NCBI GenBank assembly: GCA_963840175.1
Contig: CAWIXU010000004.1
Span: 9,288 to 73,287, forward strand
From: an uncultured Acidimicrobiia bacterium
GTDB taxonomy: Bacteria; Actinomycetota; Acidimicrobiia; Spongiisociales; ZC4RG35
Length of the DNA: 64,000 bases
Direction of reading: 5' to 3'
The translations under genes and the position numbers were made by a program. The notes under the pieces are model-generated. The model saw nothing but the letters and a program-made list of their open reading frames with translations. It was not told where the DNA came from and did not search any database. Shown in pieces: positions 7,850 through 54,024 of this stretch (position 1 is the stretch's first letter; the number at the start of each line of letters is the position of its first letter).

Positions 7850-9727
7850 TTGCGCTCGCCAATCAGACAACTCCTCGCTGTGATTTTGGCCTTCGGGCTT
7901 CTCGGCGCGAACCTGCCCGTCGCCCACGCGCAGACGACCGATCCGACGTTCACCGTCACCGGATCGGGATGGGGTCACATGGTGGGAATGTCCCAATACG
8001 GAGCGAGGGCGCTCGCCGCGAATGGATCTTCGGCTGCCGATATCACCGGCTTCTATTACGCCGGAACCACCGTGCGTCAAACCACGGACGTCGTTTCCAA
8101 CTTCATGGTCACCGATCCCGATCCGCTCTGGATCGGACTGTTGCAGAACCGGTCGACCTTCAACTTCCGCGTCGACGGCGCCGGACCGGTCGGCCTTTGC
8201 AAAGCCAACGACGGCGAGGGCGAATGTCCCACCCAATTCGCCCTCTCGGGAGAAACCTGGGAGTTCCGCGCGTTGGGCGGCGGTGCCTGCCAGTACTTCA
8301 AAGCCGGGGTGGCAGTTGGCAATCCCGGAACCTGTCGCGGGGCCCTGACCTGGGACTTTGGCACGGGAACGAAGATCTTCTCACCCGATAACGGGCGGAC
8401 ATATGCCCGGGGCATCATCCGCTTCCGTCCGGCCGGAGCCGGATTCCATGTGGTTCTCGAAATCAACATGGAGGGATATCTCTATGGGCTGGGGGAGATG
8501 CCCTCGAGCTGGCCGATGGCGGCGATGCAGGCCCAGGCGATCGCGGCGCGCACCTACGCCTTGCGACAGGCATTGCGATACGGGCCGGAAGAGACGCTTG
8601 ACGCCTCCCGGCAGGCGACCTGTTGGTGTCAGCTGGTCTCCACGGTGGCCGATCAGGCGTACGTGGGTTGGGGCAAGGAGGTGGAGTCGCAAGGAAACCG
8701 GTGGGTCGAGGCAGTCAACACCAGTGCCGGCCAAGTGATCACCCACCCCCAAGCACCGGACTCGACAGTGATCGTCGCCTACTACGCCTCCTCCACGGGA
8801 GGCCACACCGATAGGAATGTCGAGGGCTTGGGCCACACCAATCCCTTGCCTTATCTGGTGGCGACGCCCGACCCCTGGTCCGTGTCAGCCGCCGCGGCTA
8901 ACCCTTTCGCGACCTGGACGCGCACGCTGACCGCAGCCGAGATCGCCACGGCCTTCGGGCTGGAATCAGTCACAGGCGTGGAGGTGACCCGACGCAATGG
9001 CTCCGGTACGGTGGCAGAGGTCACCATTGCCGGCACGCTTGGCGGACAGTCGACACTTCTTGTGCGCAGCGGCCGTAGTTTTCGTGATGCGTTTGCGATG
9101 CGTTCCACTGCCTACGCGATCAGCGGCGGGAGCGGGATCGGGACCGCCATCTGTGACGGCGTACCGCCCCCGGCGGGGTTCACCGATGTCGCGGTCGGCA
9201 ACATCCATTCCGAGGGAATCAACTGCCTGGCCGCCCTGGAGATCACCACCGGGACCACCGCCACCACGTTCTCGCCCGCCCAGGCGGTGAGCAGGTGGCA
9301 GATGGCAGTCTTCTTGATCCGCACCGCTCACGCCCTCGGGATTGCGGTGCCGGCACCCGTGCCGCAGGGATTCACGGACCTAACCGGCATGGCTCTCACC
9401 ACCGTCGATGCGATCAACCAGCTCAAACAACTCGGGGTCACCTCGGGAACGACCCCGACGACCTTTGCCCCCAACGCCAGCGTGTCCCGCTGGCAAATGG
9501 CGCATTTCCTCACCCGTCTTTTCGCGATCGCCGGCGGCGCACCGGCCGGAGCTGGCGCAAGCTTCAGTGATCTCAACGGCCTGAGCCCCGAGACGATCGC
9601 GGCGATTGGCCAGCTGGCCGGTCTGGGGATCACGCTCGGGACGGGTCCCGGGACCTTCGGCCCCAACGACGTGGTCACCCGCGAACAGATGGCGACCTTC
9701 CTCACCCGCCTGATCCGGCTCCTTTAG
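7850..9727 (+). CDS. SpoIID/LytB-domain protein (amidase enhancer family) with three C-terminal SLH domains
   Basis: Intact ORF 7817..9727. RBS GGAAGGA at 7837..7843, then in-frame TTG at 7850. Signal peptide. SpoIID motif GSGWGHMVGMSQYGA. Three SLH repeats at the C-terminus (TFSPAQAVSRWQMAVFL; TFAPNASVSRWQMAHFL; TFGPNDVVTREQMATFL). Confidence 0.85.
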   Translation: MRSPIRQLLAVILAFGLLGANLPVAHAQTTDPTFTVTGSGWGHMVGMSQYGARALAANGSSAADITGFYYAGTTVRQTTDVVSNFMVTDPDPLWIGLLQNRSTFNFRVDGAGPVGLCKANDGEGECPTQFALSGETWEFRALGGGACQYFKAGVAVGNPGTCRGALTWDFGTGTKIFSPDNGRTYARGIIRFRPAGAGFHVVLEINMEGYLYGLGEMPSSWPMAAMQAQAIAARTYALRQALRYGPEETLDASRQATCWCQLVSTVADQAYVGWGKEVESQGNRWVEAVNTSAGQVITHPQAPDSTVIVAYYASSTGGHTDRNVEGLGHTNPLPYLVATPDPWSVSAAAANPFATWTRTLTAAEIATAFGLESVTGVEVTRRNGSGTVAEVTIAGTLGGQSTLLVRSGRSFRDAFAMRSTAYAISGGSGIGTAICDGVPPPAGFTDVAVGNIHSEGINCLAALEITTGTTATTFSPAQAVSRWQMAVFLIRTAHALGIAVPAPVPQGFTDLTGMALTTVDAINQLKQLGVTSGTTPTTFAPNASVSRWQMAHFLTRLFAIAGGAPAGAGASFSDLNGLSPETIAAIGQLAGLGITLGTGPGTFGPNDVVTREQMATFLTRLIRLL

Positions 9728-11450: not shown

Positions 11451-11569
11451 GCTTACGAAGTATCAAGAACCGTTAACTACCGTCAAGTCCCTTAGAAACC
11501 TTCTTTTCGCGACTTCTGGATGCTTCAGCTTCTCCCCGGAGCGGGGATAGCGCGCGATCGCGTTTTCTT

Positions 11570-12122
11570 CCCCCGGAGGGGGGAGTACCCGAGCGAAGCG
11601 AGGGGGTAGGGGGCGTTTTCTCGAGACCCAGGAGCTCAACCCTCTTCTATTCCCCTCGAAAAGGAACTACTCGTTCAACATGGCCCGACCCCGTCACACC
11701 GACCTCGCCGCGAACGAGAGCACGGGAGCTTCAGAAACGGGATGACCGTCTCAGAGGCGCGGGTGTGGCAGGTGATCCGCGGCGGACAATGCGGCGCCCG
11801 GTTCCGTCGGCAGGTTCCGATCGGACGGTGGATCGTCGACTTCGCCAGTCTGCAAGCCACGACTGGTGCTCGAAATCGATGACGAGTCACACGACTGGCG
11901 TGACGAAACGGAACGCATCGAGTACATCGAAGCGGAGGGTTTTCCGATTTTGCGGCTGACAAACAAATACGTCGCCGAGGACCTCGGCGCCGTTCAGCGA
12001 ACGGTGAGCTTGTGGGTGGCGGAGCTCAAGGCAGGGCGAAGGCCGGAGTAGGGATCGCGTCTGGAGAGAACGCCCCCCTCGTCTGCCTCCTTCGTCGGCA
12101 GACACTCCCCCCTCCGGGGGAG
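11570..12122 (+). mobile_element. DUF559 cassette copy 1 (~550 bp) bounded by 17-bp terminal inverted repeats CCCCCGGAGGGGGGAGT; degraded copy
   Basis: Left TIR at 11570..11586 and right TIR (reverse complement) at 12104..12120. About 80% nucleotide identity to 41564..42114 over the whole length, including the flanks ...GAGCGAAGCG...CTCAACCCTCTTCTAT...AAAAGGAACTA and ...AACGCCCCCCTCGTCTGCCTCCTTCGTCGGCAG. Confidence 0.6.
11680..12051 (+). pseudogene. DUF559 (Vsr-like endonuclease fold) gene with at least two frameshifts
   Basis: Aligns to the intact paralog 41675..42043. One extra A near 11715 and one extra base near 11845 break the frame. ORFs 11765..11959 and 11866..12051 carry the pieces (...LEIDDESHDWRDETERIEYIEAEGFPILRLTN). 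Confidence 0.65.
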
Positions 12123-12175
12123 AAACGGGAGATCCCCTCCGGGGGGAGAAATTCAGGTCTGGGGATGAAACGGAT

Positions 12176-14752
12176 TTAGCCCGAGGGTGGCGCAGGGGCG
12201 GCGGCCTGGCCGACGGTGATGTACACCGGGCTCTTGTACGTCATCGCCGTTCCCGGCCCGGGGGTCTGAGCGAGAACGACATCGACCTGGGCGGGGTCGG
12301 TGACCGGCACGTAGGTCGCGTACACGTCGACCCAGGTCCCAGTTGAGTAGATGAATCGGTTGATCGTTCGGTAGGCCTCGCTGATCGGTAGGCCGATCAC
12401 ACTCGGCAACGCGCCGCCAGGGACCTGGCCGTTCGAGACATATATACGAATCGGAAGCCCGGCTTCGACTTCGGCTCCCGAACCGAGCGACTGGAAAACG
12501 ACGGTGCCCGCGGCCTGCAGCGAGGGAATCGGGGTTCACGTTGGGGATGAGTTTGGCCTCGGTCGCCAACGACACTGCCTCGGCTTCGGTCTTGCCGATG
12601 AGATAGGGAACGATGGTGGTCGGGGGCTTGAGGAACGGCTGGAGCTCCTCTTCGGTCAGGCGTGGAAAGTCGAGTGCTTCGACATCGGTCAGCACCATCC
12701 GCATGAACTCGGCCCAGATCGGAGCCGGGACCGAACCACCGAAGACCCGTTCGTAATACTCACCGTGGATGCGAACGTTGCGCAGGGGAACCTGATCTCG
12801 CTCGTACCCCACCCAGACCGCAGTCGTGTACTGCGGAACGAAACCGACGTACCAGGCGTCGCGATAGTCCTGGTGGGTGCCGGTCTTTCCACCCTGGGGC
12901 CGACCGATGGCGGCTCGCTCGGCCGTTCCTTCCGCGGTCGGCACTTCGAGCAGCGGGATTCGCGCTGCCTCGGCGATCGGCGCGGCGATCACCTGCTGCT
13001 GCTCGACCTGGTGCTGGTAGAGCACCTGGCCGTCCTCGTCGAGGATGCGGTCGATCAGATAGGGCTCGGCGTAGAGGCCGTTGGTGGCGAAGGACGAATA
13101 GGCGGAAGCCATCTCCAAGGTCGAAACTGCACCGGTCCCCAGCACGATCGAAGGCACCGGCTGGCAGCGGTGAGGTGATCCCCATTCGGTGCGCGGTCTC
13201 CACTACCTTCTCCGGCCCTACCTGCAAGGAGAGCTGGGCGTAGATCACATTGATCGATCGAGAGGTGGCTTCCTGGAGGGTGATGCGGCCGGCGCTGGCC
13301 CCGGCATTCGACACGGTCCACTTGTTGGGATCGGGCCCATCCGAGCAGATCGTCGGGCAGGTCAGGATGCGAGGGCTCGACCCGTCATATGTGTTGCCGA
13401 GCGTGATGCCGTTCTCGAGCGCCGCGACCAGACCAAACGGCTTGAACGCCGAACCGGGGTTACGTCGACCCTGGACGGCGAGGTCGAACTGGCTCTGTTC
13501 GAAGGGGAGCCCCGAAGCCATCACCTCGACCGCCCCGGTCTGGTTGTTGACCATCGTCAAAGCTCCAGTTGGTGAGCAAGAGTTGGCCTCGGCGTACGAG
13601 GTCAGGTTCTCGATCGGCTCGCTGGGAAAGATTCTCGTGCAGAGTTGCAGGTTCTCTTCGTAGGAATAGAAGGGGAGCCACTCGAGCAGCATCGCATTCG
13701 CCGCTTGCTGCAAATTGAGATCGATGGTCGTTTCGATGGTCAGGCCCCCGCCACCGACGCAGTTGACATCGTCGGATGGGCAACCGAAGACCGAGATGGC
13801 GCGCTCCTCCAGGGTCTGGCCGAGAAAATCGAACTCGTGACGCGAGAGGTCGGACAGCTGCCGCATCACCTCGGTGCGCACGTGTTCCGCCTCGCCGCGG
13901 AACTCGATGTGCTCGAGCACCCCAAGGGGTCTTGACTTGGCGATCTCCGCCTGAGATTCAGTGGTCCAGTCCTGTTCGAGCATGAGGTCGATGACGTCGT
14001 TGCGCCGATCGAGAACTACCTCTGGATTGTCGCCGAGGGTCGTAGAGCGAAGGGTTGCGGATGAGCACCGCGAGGGTGGCGGCCTGATCCAGGGTCAGCT
14101 CGGACATCTCGCGGTGGAAGAACTCACGGGCCGCGGTCTTGACCCCGTAGGCGCCGGCACCGAAGTAGACCGAGTTCATGTAGAACTCGAGGATCTTGTC
14201 CTTCGAGTGGCGACGCTCGAGCTCGGCGGCGATAAACGCCTCTTTGATCTTCCGCTCGATCGTGACCTCGTCGCCGACGAAGACGTTTTTCACGACCTGC
14301 TGGGTGATGGTCGAACCGCCGCGGGTGTTGCCGCTGCGGAAGTTGTCGAGGGCAGCCGAGGCGATGGCCGGGAACGAGACGCCCTGATGGTCGTAGAAGC
14401 CTTTGTCCTCCGCCGCCAGGATCGCGTGTTGAAGGAGCAACGGCACCTCGTCGATCGGGGCCGGCTCGGAGTTGCGCCCGTCGTGGAGCTCGCCGATGAT
14501 TTCTCCGCTTGCCCATATCCGCGACACCCGTGACAGGTCGGGGAGGGTCAGAGTCAACGTCTCGACTTCAGGGACGTACTCGGCTCTTACCTTGTCGATG
14601 GCGGCATAGGCGGAGTTGGCGCCGAGGAAAGTGAAGAGGCCAACCCAGGTGCTGCCCAGGAGCGCGATCGACAGCAGTCCCGCCAGAGCCGGGAACCAGC
14701 GGCCACGACGCTCGCGCGCTTCCAGTTGGTGGATGAGGGATCGATTGGCCAT
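12176..14752 (-). CDS. Class A penicillin-binding protein with C-terminal PASTA domain, multiple frameshifts
   Basis: Transglycosylase domain (GT51) in ORF 13958..14752 (EDKGFYDHQGVS, GGSTITQQ). Transpeptidase motifs SAFKPF (SxxK), SNA and KTGT in ORFs 12760..13983 and 12153..13157. PASTA domain in ORF 12176..12409. Confidence 0.85.
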
Positions 14753-17896: not shown

Positions 17897-18656
17897 TTAT
17901 CCAGCGTGGTTGAAGTCGACTCGTGCTCTCGACGTCGGGTGAGGACGCATCCCCGGAGAATGTCGGTCCCGTTCTCGAGTCGAAGCTGGGCGGTGACGAC
18001 TCCGGCAAAGCTCGATTCGGGGGACGTCGACAGGTGCTTGTGCCGTTCGCCGACACGCGTCCATCTCCACCTGGCCTGTCCGAAAGCTCATGCCCGAGAA
18101 GGAGCCGGTGGAATCGTGGGTGAAGTGCCAATCGCCAACCCCATCATCGGTCTCCTCGAAGCGAAAGGTCATTGGGTTCTGGGCATAAGTGCCCGAGATC
18201 ATTGGAAGCGGGTCGTATAGCCCGTCGCCAAGTCCCGCGTCCACCCACCAATCTCCATTCGGGTTCTCAGCCGTTGGGAGGTCATGGGCAACAAGCACCA
18301 GGTGATTCGACAACCACTTGACGTCGGGACCCTCGGGTCCATGTACGCCGCCGATGTGGCGGGTCACGTGATAGCCCAGCGAACCCAACACGAGGGATAA
18401 GGCTCCGTTCATCTGATAGCAGTAGCCGCCGCGGCTGTGGTTGGCGATTCGGTCCAGCGAGGCGGTCGGGTCGATGCTCCAGTTCTCGGACATATGAATC
18501 CACACGGATTCGTAAGGCACCCGTTCGACCCAAGCCCGATGGAGCCGGCTGCAGTGCCTCCGCGGAGGGAGGCTCCACCTCGACCCCGATGCGTCCTAGC
18601 GCCCGAACGACGTCCGGCTCTATCTGATGTCTGAAATCTGATGTCTGATGTCTCAC
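17897..18656 (-). CDS. nat: Arylamine N-acetyltransferase, frameshift near 18480-18520
   Basis: ORF 17897..18520 has the catalytic-Cys motif HSRGGYCYQMNG and the downstream NAT fold. The N-terminal YxxRIG-type segment (VRALGRIGVEVEPPSAEALQ) is in the frame of ORF 18282..18794. Confidence 0.7.
18623..18656. repeat. Heptad repeat arm, inverted relative to 17743..17772 (TGATGTC TGAAATC TGATGTC TGATGTC)
   Basis: Reverse complement of the 17743 arm at about 85% identity. Overlaps the nat 5-prime end and the stop codon of the upstream lipoprotein gene. Confidence 0.7.
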
Positions 18657-39283: not shown

Positions 39284-40273
39284 GGAAATGGAGAAGATGA
39301 TCGCCGGTCTTGGCGGACAGCTGCGTTGGGCTGCCGAGCCTGACGCACCGCGACCCGATCCCGGTCCCGGGCGGGTCTGATTGTGGCCGGGATGGGCGGC
39401 TCGGGCATCTCGGGCGATTTGGTCGCGGTGCTGGCGGCGGTGCCCGGTAACCGTCCACAAGAGCTACGGGTTGCCAGCTTGGGCGCGAACCGGCCCCCGG
39501 CTCGTGGTCGCGATGTCCTACACCGGCAACACCGAGGAAACGCTGAGCGCCGTCGAAGCGGCGACCGGCCTTGGGCTGACTCCCGGCGGTGGTCACGCTC
39601 GGGAGGGAAGCTCGGGGAGATGGCCGCGGCCAACGGATGGCCGATCGTCACGGTGCCCGGCGGGCTCCAGCCGCGGGCCGCCCTCGGCTACATGCTCGGG
39701 TCGTCTGCTGCACCTGGTCGAGGATGCGGTCGATCTCAAGCCCGGCGATCTGGCGGCGGCGGCCGACCTGGTCGATCGATCACCGAGCGGGCTCGGGCAC
39801 GACCTGGCAGCCGACCTCGCCGCCGGACTCCACGACCGGATCGCGATCGTCTACGGGATCGGCGGTCTCACCGCTCCGATCGCGCAGCGTTGGAAGACCC
39901 AGATCAACGAGAACGCCAAATGGCCCGCGTGGTGCAACGCGATGCCAGAGCTCGATCACAACGAGATCGTTTCCTGGACCTCGTTGTCGGCGGTGACGAG
40001 CCGCCACGTCGGGATCATCAGCCTCAGCGACGACTCCGAGAGCCCCGGATCGATGGACGCTCGATTCCGCCACACCTCCCGGCTCACCGAGCACGATGTG
40101 CCCTGGGTCGGCGAGGTGTGGTCGCAGGGGGTCAGCCGTCTGGAACGGATGGTGAGCCTCTGCGCCATGGGAGACTTGGTCTCCTCGAGCTGGCCCAGGC
40201 CGGAGGCATCGATCCGGTGCCGCGATACCCGAGCTCGAATCGCTCGAAACAGCTACTCGCCAAGGAGTCCTGA
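39273..40273 (+). CDS. Bifunctional phosphoglucose/phosphomannose isomerase (SIS domain; Mtb ManA-type), frameshifted
   Basis: MPAEEMEKMIAGLGGQLRWA at 39273 overlaps the Trm112 stop. (I)VAGMGGSGISGDLVAV in ORF 39383..40273. PRLVVAMSYTGNTEETLSAVEAA in ORF 39381..41060. Confidence 0.7.
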
Positions 40274-40274
40274 A

Positions 40275-41526
<1,252 letters not shown>

Positions 41527-41563
41527 GCCGAGGCCGGAAGACCAGAAGACCGTTTCTGTCTCT

Positions 41564-42114
41564 CCCCCGGAGGGGGGAGTACCGAAGCGAAGCGGAGGGG
41601 AGGGGGGCGTTATCTCTTAACGACGACGCTCAACCCTCTTCTATCCGGCCCGAAAAGGAACTAGTCGTGAGTGGATGCCAAGACCTGGTCACACCAACCT
41701 CGCCGCGACGAGAGCACGCGACCTTCGAAAGGAAATGACCGTCTCTGAGGCCCGGGTGTGGCAGGTGCTGAAAGGCAGGCAATGCGGGGCCCGGTTTCGC
41801 CGCCAGGTCCCGATCGGTTGTTGGATCGTGGACTTCGCCAGCCTGCGGCCTCGTCTTGTGCTCGAAATTGATGACCAATCACATGACTGGCGCGACGAAA
41901 CGGAGCGCATCGAGTACATCGAGGCGAGGGGCTTTCCGATTCTGCGCCTGACCAATGAATACGTAGCGAAGGATCTAGGTGCTGTTCAGCGAACGATCAG
42001 CTACTGGGTCGCAGACCTCAAAGCAGGACGACGACCGGAATAGGTTTCGAGCTAGAGAAAACGCCCCCCTCGTCTGCCTCCTTCGTCGGCAGCCACTCCC
42101 CCCTCCGGGGGGAG
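41564..42114 (+). mobile_element. DUF559 cassette copy 2 (~550 bp) with 17-bp terminal inverted repeats; intact copy
   Basis: Left TIR CCCCCGGAGGGGGGAGT at 41564..41580. Right TIR (reverse complement, ACTCCCCCCTCCGGGGGGAG) at 42095..42114. Paralogous to 11570..12122. Inserted between ahcY and the P450 gene. Confidence 0.6.
41675..42043 (+). CDS. DUF559 domain protein (Vsr-like / PD-(D/E)xK endonuclease fold), 122 aa, intact
   Basis: ORF 41675..42043 (...TRARDLRKEMTVSEARVWQVLKGRQCGARFRRQVPIGCWIVDFASLRPRLVLEIDDQSHDWRDETERIEYIEARGFPILRLTNEYV...) matches the DUF559 consensus (FRRQ.PIG.YIVDF...IEVDG..H...D..R...L...G..VLRF.N). Confidence 0.8.
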   Translation: MPRPGHTNLAATRARDLRKEMTVSEARVWQVLKGRQCGARFRRQVPIGCWIVDFASLRPRLVLEIDDQSHDWRDETERIEYIEARGFPILRLTNEYVAKDLGAVQRTISYWVADLKAGRRPE

Positions 42115-42421
42115 AAACCGAATTGGGAGACGTGGCCACTCCCCTGCAGGGAGAGCCGAAGGAGAGACAACTAGGCGGTCGACCAGCAGGGGTCGTATTC
42201 GCAGCCGAACTCGAACGGCGGAAGAGTTTGCGGGATCGCCAGCGCCAGCACAACCGTGATTATCGCGAGCACGAGAAAAGCGGTTAAGTCAGTTTTTCGC
42301 GAAGATTGATGGGTGAAGGCACTGAGGTCAGTGCAGACCTTGTACGAAACCAGGGTGATCGCGACCAGATAGAGAACCGTCACCGTGCCCTGCCCCGAGC
42401 CCACATGGGGCGATCATAGAA

Positions 42422-43600
42422 CTACGCCTCCCATACAGCGGGAACCGAACGCGGCTTGCGGAACACCAGACCGGTTGGTCCGTCGACTTCCTGGGCCAGG
42501 CGCAGTCCCGGCCAGTGGTCGAGGGCCGCGTCGAGAGCCGCCAGAGTTTCAAGCTTGGCGAGATGGATGCCAATGCACGCATGCGGACCTTCCGCGAACG
42601 CAAGATGAGTTCGAGCGTTGGCGCGATGAATGTCGAATCGGTCGGGATCGACAAAGACGGACGGATCGCGATTCGCGGCTGTCAAAGAAACGATCACCAA
42701 GTCACCCCGGTTGATCTCTGCCCCGGCCAGCTGCACATCTCTTGTCGCATACCGGTCGACGCGTCCTGCCGCTGGCTCCAACCGAAGCGATTCCTCCATC
42801 GCTTGACGGCCGAGCGACCGATCTTCGATGATCATTTGCAGCTGTTCGGGATGGGTGAGGACATGCCAGAAAAGGCTCGTTGTCATTCCCTCGCTGGTCT
42901 CGATGCCACCGAACATCATCACGGCGGCGTTCGAGACCACCTCTTGCTCACCCAGCTGCCCACTCACTTCGGTCAGAAGCCCGTGCTGGCGGGTAGCGCT
43001 TTCCCGAACTGCGCGCCCGAGATCGCCCATTGCCTCGTGGCCAGCTCCAGTGACGTCTTGACCGGCTGAGATTCGATCGACGTCAGCCACGATCCGCTCG
43101 TACCAGCTGAGAACCGTGTCGACGTCCTCATCGACCAGATCGAGGGCTGCAGTCACCACGGCCACTGCCAGAGGACCGGCCAGCTCACGACGAATTTCGG
43201 CTTGGCCGGTGTCCGCCAAACGTTCGGTAAGGCGGCGCGCCTCTTGATGTACTCGATCAACGAATCGCTCCTTGACTTTTGCATGGACCAGCGCTGCCGC
43301 GAAAGGATCTCGATGTCGACGATGCTCTTCCCCGTCGAGTGACAACATGCTCGGACCGACCACCTGGCCAGTCGAGAAACGAGGGTCATCAACCGTGTAG
43401 GTCTGTGCGTCGCGCATCACTTCAACACAGAGGTCACGCCGGGTCACTAACCACCCATCGAGGGCCGGAACCCAACTCACCGGCTCGTGAGCGCGCAACG
43501 CCGCCAGATGCGGATAGGGGTCACCAGCCAGCTGTTCAAGCGTGACGGCCGCGCCGAGCGGGAATGCCATGAAGCCAATCTTGTCACACCGTTCCGTCAT
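42422..43600 (-). CDS. Cytochrome P450 monooxygenase
   Basis: Heme-binding loop FAEGPHACIGIHLAKLE near the C-terminus of ORF 42422..44101, plus ExxR (ESLRLEP) and an I-helix-like MMFGGIETSEG. The real start is probably MTERCDK/MAFPLG. The first ~165 aa of the ORF are read-through antisense to comF. Confidence 0.85.
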   Translation of the reverse strand: MTERCDKIGFMAFPLGAAVTLEQLAGDPYPHLAALRAHEPVSWVPALDGWLVTRRDLCVEVMRDAQTYTVDDPRFSTGQVVGPSMLSLDGEEHRRHRDPFAAALVHAKVKERFVDRVHQEARRLTERLADTGQAEIRRELAGPLAVAVVTAALDLVDEDVDTVLSWYERIVADVDRISAGQDVTGAGHEAMGDLGRAVRESATRQHGLLTEVSGQLGEQEVVSNAAVMMFGGIETSEGMTTSLFWHVLTHPEQLQMIIEDRSLGRQAMEESLRLEPAAGRVDRYATRDVQLAGAEINRGDLVIVSLTAANRDPSVFVDPDRFDIHRANARTHLAFAEGPHACIGIHLAKLETLAALDAALDHWPGLRLAQEVDGPTGLVFRKPRSVPAVWEA

Positions 43601-43609
43601 GGTGAACCG

Positions 43610-44173
43610 ATGCTTTGTGTGGGCTGCGGAAGGTTGGGCGATGACCTCTGTCGCGCCTGCCGGCAAAATCTGGTGGAGGCGCCCGACCGTTTGCTGGCCT
43701 CCGGATTGCTGGTTCGCTCGTGCTTCGAGCACACGGGCGTCGCCAAAACAGTCGTGCACGCCTTCAAATATCAGGGAAGCGATCGCGCAGGGTGGCTGCT
43801 TGCTCGAGCCCTCGCCTGCCTGCTGCCGCCGACGTGGCACTCTGGTGCCGCTACCTCCGCGAGCTGGCGCACCGTCACTTACGGAGTCGACCCCGCTCGT
43901 GAGCTGGCCAAAAAAGTTTCGTTGCTGACCGGCAGACAGATTTGGATGGGTTTGGAGCCACCATTGCACAGCTCCGCCCAGGCCGGACGCGTACGAACCG
44001 AACGCGACCCTCCGGCGTTTACGGTCAGCGAGGAGCCTCCCACCGACTTGATCCTGATCGACGATGTTGTCACCACTGGCCGAACCCTGATGAGCGCCCA
44101 ACGTTCGCTCGGCCAGGGCGACCGTCCAAAACCGGTTCTTTTGGCCCTGTCCGCGACAGCTACCAGTGACTAG
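43610..44173 (+). CDS. ComF-family phosphoribosyltransferase
   Basis: ORF 43487..44173 has an N-terminal zinc-finger (CVGCGRLGDDLCRACRQ) and the PRTase motif LILIDDVVTTGRTL. Confidence 0.75.
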   Translation: MLCVGCGRLGDDLCRACRQNLVEAPDRLLASGLLVRSCFEHTGVAKTVVHAFKYQGSDRAGWLLARALACLLPPTWHSGAATSASWRTVTYGVDPARELAKKVSLLTGRQIWMGLEPPLHSSAQAGRVRTERDPPAFTVSEEPPTDLILIDDVVTTGRTLMSAQRSLGQGDRPKPVLLALSATATSD

Positions 44174-45426: not shown

Positions 45427-45505
45427 GAGACGTCAGACATCAGACGTCAGACATCAGACTGGGATTCCATCTGAAGTCTGAAATCTGATGTCTGATGTCT
45501 TCTCA
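45427..45505. repeat. Long imperfect inverted repeat (about 24-bp stem) built from GAC(G/A)TCA heptads, between the response regulator and secA; possible terminator/attenuator or regulator-binding array
   Basis: Left arm GAGACGTCAGACATCAGACGTCAGACATCAGAC, loop TGGGATTCCATCTGAA, right arm GTCTGAAATCTGATGTCTGATGTCTTCTC. Same repeat family as 17743..17772 and 18623..18656. Confidence 0.65.
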
Positions 45506-53650: not shown

Positions 53651-53673
53651 GGCTCGGCCGTTCTTCGTAATCG

Positions 53674-54024
53674 TGGAGGCGGCGGGAATCGGACCCGCGT
53701 CCCATGAGTCGTCAGCGCCGGCATCTCCGAGCGCAGCCGTCGGCGAGCTTGTCGGCAAGAAGGACCCCAACGGCGGGCTTCCCACTCGCTTATCCGGAGT
53801 TGATCTTTGCCCTCCGGTCCCGGATCCCGGAGGACGCATCCTGCATTGCGACGCCCGATTCCGGCGAGGCAGGCGCCCACCGGGCGGACGGGCTGCGTTA
53901 TTTAGGCAGCCAGTGCGAAGTTGTCTTCGGCACTTGTGTTTGTTTCCGGCTCTTTAACGAGGTTCCGGAGACCTCGGCTCGCTTCCGACGCATCAACACT
54001 CATGGTCGAAACCATTTCGCCCCC
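53674..54024 (-). ncRNA. ssrA: tmRNA (ssrA), about 351 nt; tag reading frame ...GCC GAA GAC AAC UUC GCA CUG GCU GCC UAA (AEDNFALAA)
   Basis: Minus-strand 5-prime end GGGGGCGAAAUGGUUUCGACC (compare M. tuberculosis GGGGCUGAACGGUUUCGAC). 3-prime tRNA-like end GGACGCGGGUCCGAUUCCCGCCGCCUCCA(+CCA). Acceptor stem GGGGGCG/CGCCUCC with G3-U70. Tag ends ALAA, then UAA UAA. Located just downstream of smpB as in other Actinobacteria. Coordinates +/-2 nt. Confidence 0.8.

Follow-up and report, generated by a model that had tools for sequence, protein, structure and literature searches.

The two short DUF559 genes found in a 64,000-nt stretch of the genome of an uncultured Acidimicrobiia bacterium (contig CAWIXU010000004.1; this whole stretch is called the window below) each lie between inverted arms, forming units of about 565 bp (copy 1, 11562-12126; copy 2, 41552-42117). 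On balance, we favor the view that each unit is a gene-bearing member of a family of dispersed, foldable palindromic repeats and that the DUF559 protein is the family's own nuclease, in a partnership resembling that of REPINs and RAYTs. More tentatively, short DUF559/YcjD nucleases might be the cognate enzymes of BoxC, PIT or intrastrand-triplex repeats throughout Bacteria, with the breaks that they make driving both the spread of the repeats and the instability of the loci. The unit looks selfish or semi-domesticated and has not been described as an element, and it does not appear to be a self-contained transposon. What is new is the link to a gene, a putative partner that had gone unrecognized for a known repeat class.

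A first-pass annotation of the window had proposed two similar DUF559 cassettes with 17-bp terminal inverted repeats (TIRs) in unrelated contexts. Both cassettes were located, at about 80% identity and with a similarity that includes the non-coding flanks. When the two units were compared with each other and with the DNA outside them, their alignment was found to be bounded by the arm ends, GTTTCT ... AGAAAC, and the flanks beyond are unrelated: copy 1 lies between a hypothetical gene and a PBP gene, and copy 2 between ahcY and a P450 gene. The 17-mer CCCCCGGAGGGGGGAGT has four exact occurrences in the window, one per unit end and in inverted orientation (0.06 expected by chance; four reached in none of 100 dinucleotide shuffles), but alignment of left with right arms shows that the true inverted repeat is about 55-70 nt long and imperfect.

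The proposal that the non-coding ends are conserved was borne out. Copies 1 and 2 are 79% identical in the non-coding part on the left, 81.6% in the coding sequence and 89.9% in the non-coding part on the right. The right arms are 96.5% identical over 57 nt (2 mismatches) and the left arms 87% identical over 54 nt (7 mismatches), whereas third codon positions have diverged by 39% (61% identity; Jukes-Cantor distance 0.55). Tested against the third-position rate, the mismatches in the arms are far too few (P = 4e-10 for the right arm, P = 2e-5 for the left), which shows that the arms are functional or homogenized; the constraint on them is far stronger than that on synonymous sites. Because of the same third-position divergence, the two copies are to be regarded as old paralogs and not as products of a recent transposition.

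Copy 2 encodes an intact protein of 122 aa, as annotated, but in copy 1 three insertions of a single A interrupt the reading frame. With these three nucleotides removed, copy 1 yields a full-length protein 86% identical to that of copy 2 (105 of 122 residues and a matching stop). The 68 substitutions between the copies are distributed 15/5/48 over codon positions 1, 2 and 3, and thus both copies have evolved as coding genes, with copy 1 under purifying selection. The three insertions may reflect a pseudogene or errors of assembly, the latter because ahcY in the window also has several frameshifts. At least five frame changes are needed to read through that gene (about 40270-41526), two of which were mapped against a relative's gene (a 1-nt deletion at 40938 and a 1-nt insertion at 41055). 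The sugar-isomerase-like gene upstream of ahcY and the PBP gene look frameshifted too (regions 39381-41526 and 12153-13983), unlike the P450 gene (42422-43620, minus strand), whose frame is intact. These frameshifts around the units suggest local assembly indel errors or real decay, and they bear on the question of whether copy 1 is a pseudogene.

From the outside in, an arm comprises GTTTCT, an outer hairpin with a C/G stem of 7-8 bp (CTCCCCC-GGAG-GGGGGAG), the linker AGTA, a variable second hairpin and a purine run, GAGGGGG(G), in which the purine strand of the outer hairpin recurs in mirror order. An internal hairpin had been annotated just before the right TIR, and indeed both right arms contain CTGCC-N9-GGCAG, which forms the expected fold in a tool that models Watson-Crick pairs only. 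The z-scores of folding energy range from -1.2 to -2.4, with +1.0 for the left arm of copy 1; as G/C-rich shuffles fold well too, folding energy alone is no evidence for the arms. A scan for terminators and promoters found no intrinsic terminator at the arms. A scan of the whole window at Rfam gathering thresholds gave no match there either, its only hit being a tmRNA gene (53671-54024, minus strand; RF00023, 157.7 bits).

The succession of a pyrimidine block, a complementary purine block and a mirror purine block is the design of the repeats first described as BoxC next to fabI (envM) of E. coli (Bergler 1992), renamed PIT elements (Hoyne and Maher 2000) and then TMECO triplex motifs (Holder et al. 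2015, PMC4666352). A finder for this three-block motif gave only three matches in the 64 kb, all at DUF559 arms, and the fourth arm of the window misses it by one mismatch. For maximal stems in related loci, mirror copies of the purine block outnumbered direct copies as the third block (138 versus 52 and 164 versus 79); a cruder control with sliding 7-mers discriminated poorly (181 mirror versus 117 direct). Like the arms, BoxC/PIT/TMECO repeats are G/C-rich, intergenic and dispersed, often occur in inverted pairs and are found in variable DNA. In contrast, the search of Holder et al. used the loops of 1-6 nt of the short-loop criterion of ITxF, whereas the second loop of the window arms is 17-20 nt long and itself contains a hairpin, and the window arms have outer GTTTCT/AGAAAC ends in addition. 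Taken together, the arms fit the BoxC/PIT/intrastrand-triplex design with an extra mini-hairpin, the triplex being putative.

Metagenome contigs were scanned with the 20-nt arm core CCCCCGRAGGGGGGAGTACC, which gave at least 120 stretches, amounting to 736 kb among the matches listed; all counts from these contigs, here and below, hold among the matches listed. The core occurs at least 129 times, 4 times beside a DUF559 gene and 125 times without one, and all four DUF559 genes in the contigs have an adjoining arm. The arms thus form a dispersed repeat family that is about 30 times commoner without the gene than with it; together with the BoxC-type design, this overturns the earlier idea that they are the private ends of a 550-bp transposon. 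Most are solo arms (101/129). A right-type partner within 300 nt was found for 26 arms, forming paired units of about 100-260 nt (97-256 nt measured); two more arms have a partner at 481-700 nt, both enclosing DUF559, and none has one at 301-480 or 700-3000 nt. No gene other than DUF559 was seen between paired arms. The window element also occurs without its gene, at two loci (L090 and L139) that retain both arms and part of the leader but have no open reading frame (ORF); the gap in the DUF559 ORF reaches to about 20 nt from either end. In homologous loci, gene-less units and tandem partial modules lie directly beside the gene.

The second hairpin varies in sequence among these arms, and its pairing is kept, with stems such as CCGCC/GGCGG, CCGGC/GCCGG, CCTCAC/GTGAGG and GGAACCC/GGGTTCC, among others. 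Perfect stems of at least 5 bp are found in 49% of the distinct segments versus 4% of shuffles, and the right arm of L090 and L139 shows a compensatory change from T:A to C:G. The loops are mostly GNA, and many of these hairpins contain GCGAAGC, a very stable DNA mini-hairpin.

The association of gene and repeat extends well beyond Acidimicrobiia. Relatives of the window protein were collected from 80 loci picked by protein sequence alone, in many phyla and among others in Acidimicrobiia, Chloroflexota, Acidobacteriota, Alpha-, Beta- and Gammaproteobacteria, Bacteroidota, Planctomycetota, Spirochaetota, Elusimicrobiota and Melainabacteria. A flanking inverted repeat with a score of at least 35 was present at 40 of the 71 testable loci versus none of 395 control positions in the same loci. 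The three-block motif lies no more than 300 nt from the gene at 74 of the 80 loci, on both sides at 45 of them, and it is mostly inward-facing; its density is 4.31 per kb near the gene versus 0.113 per kb far away, a 38-fold difference. The sequence of the arm varies by lineage, and near and far copies in one genome share one type.

Some of these loci deserve a separate description. An Elusimicrobia genome has the layout AGTACC-GGCGTAGCC-GG, the same as that of Acidimicrobiia arms. On the low-GC chromosome of Parelusimicrobium proximum (L079, 2744-3495 and 4445-4537), the arm reads TTTCTCCCC-TTTTAA-GGGGAG-TACCGGCGTAGCCGG-GGTAGGG, with a second hairpin nearly the same as that of Acidimicrobiia arms, and this likeness points to a strong constraint on that segment or else to horizontal spread of the system as a whole. 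In a gammaproteobacterial metagenome-assembled genome (L012, 2775-2940 and 3343-3510), an entire gene-less paired unit of about 165 nt, made of left arm, spacer, right arm and partial arm, is repeated in the same direction on both sides of the DUF559 gene, an arrangement unlike the single arm per side of the window units.

The protein of copy 2 matches Pfam DUF559 (PF04480) with 87 bits against a cut-off of 20.6 (E = 1e-24, residues 11-109). Among 41 homologues, E64, D66, H70, R78 and R91 are invariant and D53 nearly so, and all six residues are present in the window protein. A profile of these homologues matched the DUF559 protein NGO0050 of N. gonorrhoeae (PDB 3HRL) with E = 2e-32 and the homing endonuclease I-Bth0305I with E = 0.0035. 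Likewise, an AlphaFold2 model (pLDDT 89) gave Foldseek TM-scores of 0.92 to 3HRL and 0.69-0.72 to I-Bth0305I (E = 1e-3), with a weak match to the Vsr structure 1CW0 (E = 0.25, TM-score 0.4-0.5); a Pfam scan at E <= 0.01 returned DUF559 only, with no match to the Vsr family. On these structural matches and the conserved acidic and histidine residues of catalytic type, the protein is predicted to be a PD-(D/E)XK nuclease of Vsr fold, as the first-pass annotation had suggested, and to consist of the nuclease domain alone. I-Bth0305I (PDB 3R3P, EDxHD) shares the Vsr-like catalytic fold and is also a nuclease of selfish DNA, but it is encoded by a group I intron of a phage and carries an extra region for DNA binding, whereas the window gene is free-standing in intergenic DNA, outside any intron or intein. 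PADLOC returned no match to a defense system, and the arm core had no match in viral contigs.

The YcjD protein of E. coli belongs, like NGO0050, to the same short DUF559 family. The window protein scores 59.9 bits (E = 2e-16) with the NCBIfam YcjD equivalog model NF007294, below its curated cut-off of 218, and by this measure it is a homologue of YcjD, not an equivalog. The ycjD gene also lies beside a repeat of this class, as TMECO no. 9 of Holder et al. is found 167 nt downstream of it; unlike in the window, the motif is clear on one side only. The DNA between ycjD and TMECO no. 9 (L207; E. coli K-12, NC_000913.3, 1351204-1351420) contains a diverged repetition of the final ~60 nt of ycjD (ggagacggtgctggagaatattc...), which looks like the relic of a second DUF559 copy, and the stop codon of ycjD overlaps a CCCTCTCCC...GAGGGGG hairpin.

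Holder et al. found TMECO motifs in more than 260 genomes, at loci that are hypervariable by a mechanism described as unclear; they report formation of the triplex by the E. coli motif from circular dichroism and nuclear magnetic resonance (PMC4666352). According to the same source, mobility functions were never found near the motifs; the word 'nuclease' is absent from its text, and ycjD is mentioned nowhere but in a supplementary table, as a flanking gene. Full-text searches of the literature, with subscription-only papers outside their reach, found no paper that links DUF559 to BoxC-type repeats and no description at the level of the element, in agreement with the earlier annotation. The TMECO count differs sharply by E. 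coli strain (Table S7 of PMC4666352), with 15 in the ST69 strain UMN026. The ycjD gene is reported in phylogroups A, B1 and C plus ST69 and ST182, where it occupies the place of eefRABCD between sapF and fabI (PMC12817139, 2026). It is present in 3378 of 5426 complete genomes. If the tabulated strains are assigned to what we take to be their phylogroups, those of B2 have 1-2 motifs each, those of D, E and F have 6-13, and those of A, B1 and C have 13-30. High counts coincide with the lineages in which ycjD is reported, which fits the proposed partnership, subject to the confounding taken up below.

Comparisons of loci bear on how the units persist and move. In relatives with an 87-88% identical AhcY, ahcY is directly followed by comF (or a comF-like gene) and hpf (e.g., L085, 751-865). 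At the same place (41527-43620), the window has about 2 kb of extra DNA with the DUF559 unit, a 77-aa ORF and the P450 gene on the opposite strand. The unit lies at the edge of this indel, an arrangement that resembles that of E. coli ycjD in place of eefRABCD (PMC12817139). The search for empty sites that had been called for was answered in part: the element is missing from the relatives at the ahcY site, but nucleotide identity of about 80% and the P450 insertion of the window leave no base-exact empty site to be defined. In three other Acidimicrobiia genomes, the cassette of about 550 bp is found between the same two genes, with flanks 87-88% identical, and one of the three has it in the opposite orientation between those flanks, the breakpoints coinciding with the arm ends (L005 versus L006); both orientations thus occur across species at one locus, and no recombinase gene was noted nearby. 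From the ahcY-site and three-genome comparisons, the unit persists vertically at a locus, can flip, and occupies different loci in different genomes. The mobile unit that had been proposed survives in part: the gene-less derivatives and the flip of the cassette fit it, but inspection by eye revealed no target-site duplication abutting either window copy or the gene-less units inspected, the copies are old, and the cassette has stayed at one locus through speciation. Such a unit had been thought to explain why DUF559 genes are multi-copy in actinobacteria, in which they are mostly of a longer protein type.

Many of these features recall REP sequences, REPINs and their RAYTs (Nunvar 2010; Bertels and Rainey 2011, PMC3116915), which likewise combine dispersed palindromic repeats, as singlets and inverted doublets, with a low-copy gene that is flanked by inverted repeats and outnumbered by them, persist vertically at a locus, and show no target-site duplication. 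The differences lie in the repeat, as REP is a simple hairpin and the repeats described here have a three-block design, and in the enzyme. RAYT is a Y1 HUH transposase, similar to those of IS200/IS605, that cuts and rejoins single-stranded DNA, whereas DUF559 is a Vsr-fold PD-(D/E)XK hydrolase without rejoining chemistry. We infer a course of events in which recognition, cleavage, repair-driven copying and mobility would follow from one another. An arm that becomes single-stranded, on the lagging-strand template, during transcription or by cruciform extrusion, would fold; the nuclease would recognize the folded, possibly triple-helical, arm and nick it, with no rejoining by the nuclease itself; host recombination or repair would then take other copies of the arm as homology. 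As a result, arms or the gene-bearing unit might be copied to new places, the cassette might be inverted between its arms, and the neighboring DNA might become unstable.

Several points weigh against this proposal. The link between protein and arm is drawn from association, and the causality could be reversed, if the gene preferred to lodge in such repeats without serving them. A PD-(D/E)XK nuclease breaks DNA but cannot ligate it, so that the spread of the repeats would have to rely on host functions. No motif was found within 300 nt of the gene at 6 of the 80 DUF559 loci. Mirror third blocks outnumber direct ones by no more than about 2-2.6 to 1, and ties are numerous. The 64-kb window contains no solo arms, its arms being confined to the two genes, and this genome may carry few gene-less copies. 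In E. coli, lineages reported to be without ycjD keep 6-13 repeats (PMC12817139, PMC4666352), and the correlation between TMECO and ycjD is confounded by phylogeny.

A free-standing homing-endonuclease gene is an alternative that we regard as unlikely. The DUF559 ORF would be selfish, would cut pre-existing gene-less units between their arms, and would be copied into them by repair with the arms as homology; the palindromic units themselves would have another means of spreading. L090 and L139, with both arms, the leader and an ORF gone almost to its ends, resemble empty alleles of such a gene, the exclusive presence of DUF559 as cargo between arms fits such a gene, and the lack of target-site duplications is what homing predicts; moreover, if the uncharacterized family member is set aside, the nearest characterized structural relative, I-Bth0305I, is a true homing endonuclease. 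However, a homing gene should sweep its targets, and only 4 of the 129 arms are beside the gene. Nor does homing agree well with the age of the window copies, with the retention of the cassette at one locus through speciation, or with a 122-aa protein that, unlike I-Bth0305I, has no separate DNA-binding domain, and the spread of solo arms is left unexplained.

The possibility that the 565-bp unit is an autonomous TIR transposon, moving by cut-and-paste with DUF559 as its transposase and mobilizing the gene-less units in trans as miniature inverted-repeat transposable elements (MITEs), appears quite improbable. The likeness to MITEs and TIR transposons lies in the terminal inverted repeats, in the precise ends common to two copies in unrelated contexts, in paired gene-less units of 97-256 nt with the same ends, and in the lack of the unit at the ahcY site of close relatives. 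Unlike in such transposons, target-site duplications were seen neither at the window copies nor at the gene-less units inspected, most arms are single, and the copies are old paralogs. In addition, tandem and partial arm modules cluster around the genes, closer to REP/BIME clusters than to transposon ends. DUF559 is the only family match among the window ORFs at the units, which include no transposase of a known family. We know of no PD-(D/E)XK nuclease that acts as the sole transposase; TnsA works together with TnsB.

There is similarly little to recommend the view that DUF559 is an ordinary host gene, coding for a Vsr-like repair or methylation-linked nuclease, and that the arms are not its substrates but REP-like intergenic repeats serving as insulators, mRNA stabilizers or an invertible switch. 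In its favor, Caulobacter VsrA, a protein with a DUF559 domain and the Vsr-like PD-(D/E)XK fold, is SOS-induced and functionally linked to a cytosine methylase (PMC12907096); the SOS-inducing DNA damage that it causes in vivo in a methylase mutant (PMC12907096) agrees with the favored partnership. DUF559 is also 14-fold enriched among predicted targets of programmed inversion (PMC9881135), which agrees with the opposite orientations in L005 and L006, and the cassette is kept at the same locus in three species. However, Vsr nicks T:G mismatches and is associated with a cytosine methylase, whereas the window protein has no Pfam Vsr match and no methylase is evident beside either copy in the ORF lists, which cover 64 kb, a distant methylase being possible. 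The host-gene view also leaves unexplained why the same unusual repeat design should flank one small gene family from Actinomycetota to Elusimicrobiota and why DUF559 is the only gene between paired arms, and the arms are not intrinsic terminators.

Plain gene duplication or an assembly artifact, which the position of the copies 30 kb apart in the same orientation might have suggested, can be dismissed as a negligible prospect: the similarity runs through the non-coding arms and is highest there, arms occur in more than 100 unrelated metagenome contigs, and the copies differ by 18% and have different flanks.

The features of both units are collected in Table 1, with partial hairpins of the outer type that lie just outside them. 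Short intergenic tandem repeats with units of 6-8 nt also occur in the window: GAAGACC is present twice directly left of the copy-2 arm (41536-41550), and arrays of the TCTGATG type are found at 18619-18654 and, as a palindromic pair, at 45427-45500. Similar heptamer arrays adjoin arms in related loci (L011, L085, L087, L094, L127, L128, L131). A further repeat family in the window, with nine copies (666-1813 and 9261-9703), consists of direct repeats of about 56 nt at a spacing of about 196 nt that encode a motif of the RWQMALFL type; they probably represent SLH-like domains arranged in tandem in the genes of two cell-surface proteins.

Table 1. Positions of the arms, genes and accessory hairpins of the two DUF559 units in the window.
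Feature	Position	Strand	Evidence and description
Copy-1 outside hairpin, left	11530..11547	+	Degenerate outer-type hairpin TTCTCCCCGGAGCGGGGA, 15 nt ahead of the copy-1 left arm
Copy-1 left arm	11562..11617	+	GTTTTCT, TTCCCCC-GGAG-GGGGGAG, linker, GGGGGTAGGGGGCGTT
Copy-1 DUF559 frame	11680..12051	+	A insertions opposite copy-2 positions 41707, 41726 and 41846; frame regained after the third
Copy-1 right arm	12069..12126	-	Finder match 12074-12122 (-)
Copy-1 outside hairpin, right	12133..12152	-	Second, partial outer hairpin TCCCCTCCGGGGGGAGAAAT, 6 nt past the copy-1 right arm
Copy-2 left arm	41552..41612	+	Inverted-repeat alignment, triplex-motif finder match 41562-41606, DNA fold; GTTTCT, outer hairpin CTCCCCC-GGAG-GGGGGAG (41562-41579), linker and weak second hairpin TACCGAAGCGAAGCGGA, inner purine block GAGGGGG(G) (41600-41607) mirroring the purine strand of the outer hairpin
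Copy-2 leader, left arm to start codon	41613..41674	+	Alignments; motif CTCAACCC...CGAAAAGGAAC conserved in both copies and partly retained in gene-less L090
Copy-2 DUF559 ORF, intact, 122 aa	41675..42043	+	Pfam match, invariant residues, structural matches
Copy-2 right arm	42059..42117	-	Inverted-repeat alignment, DNA fold, finder match 42064-42114 (-); on the + strand AACG, inner block CCCCCCTC, second hairpin CTGCC-N9-GGCAG (42073-42091), outer hairpin CTCCCCCC-TCC-GGGGGGAG (42095-42113), AAAC
Copy-2 outside hairpin, right	42139..42153	+	Degenerate extra outer-type hairpin CTCCC-CTGCA-GGGAG, outside the copy-2 right arm

If the proposed partnership is correct, it would give a function at once to two orphans, the BoxC-type repeats and the DUF559 family, the latter a very large family that includes ycjD of E. 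coli K-12. The link would address the origin of BoxC, its means of spread and the cause of the instability of its loci. It would also provide a second case of a domesticated nuclease with its own repeat population, with a chemistry unlike that of RAYT, and a natural protein able to recognize DNA in an unusual fold. E. coli K-12, with its single ycjD gene and 23 repeats, lends itself to a direct test of the idea.

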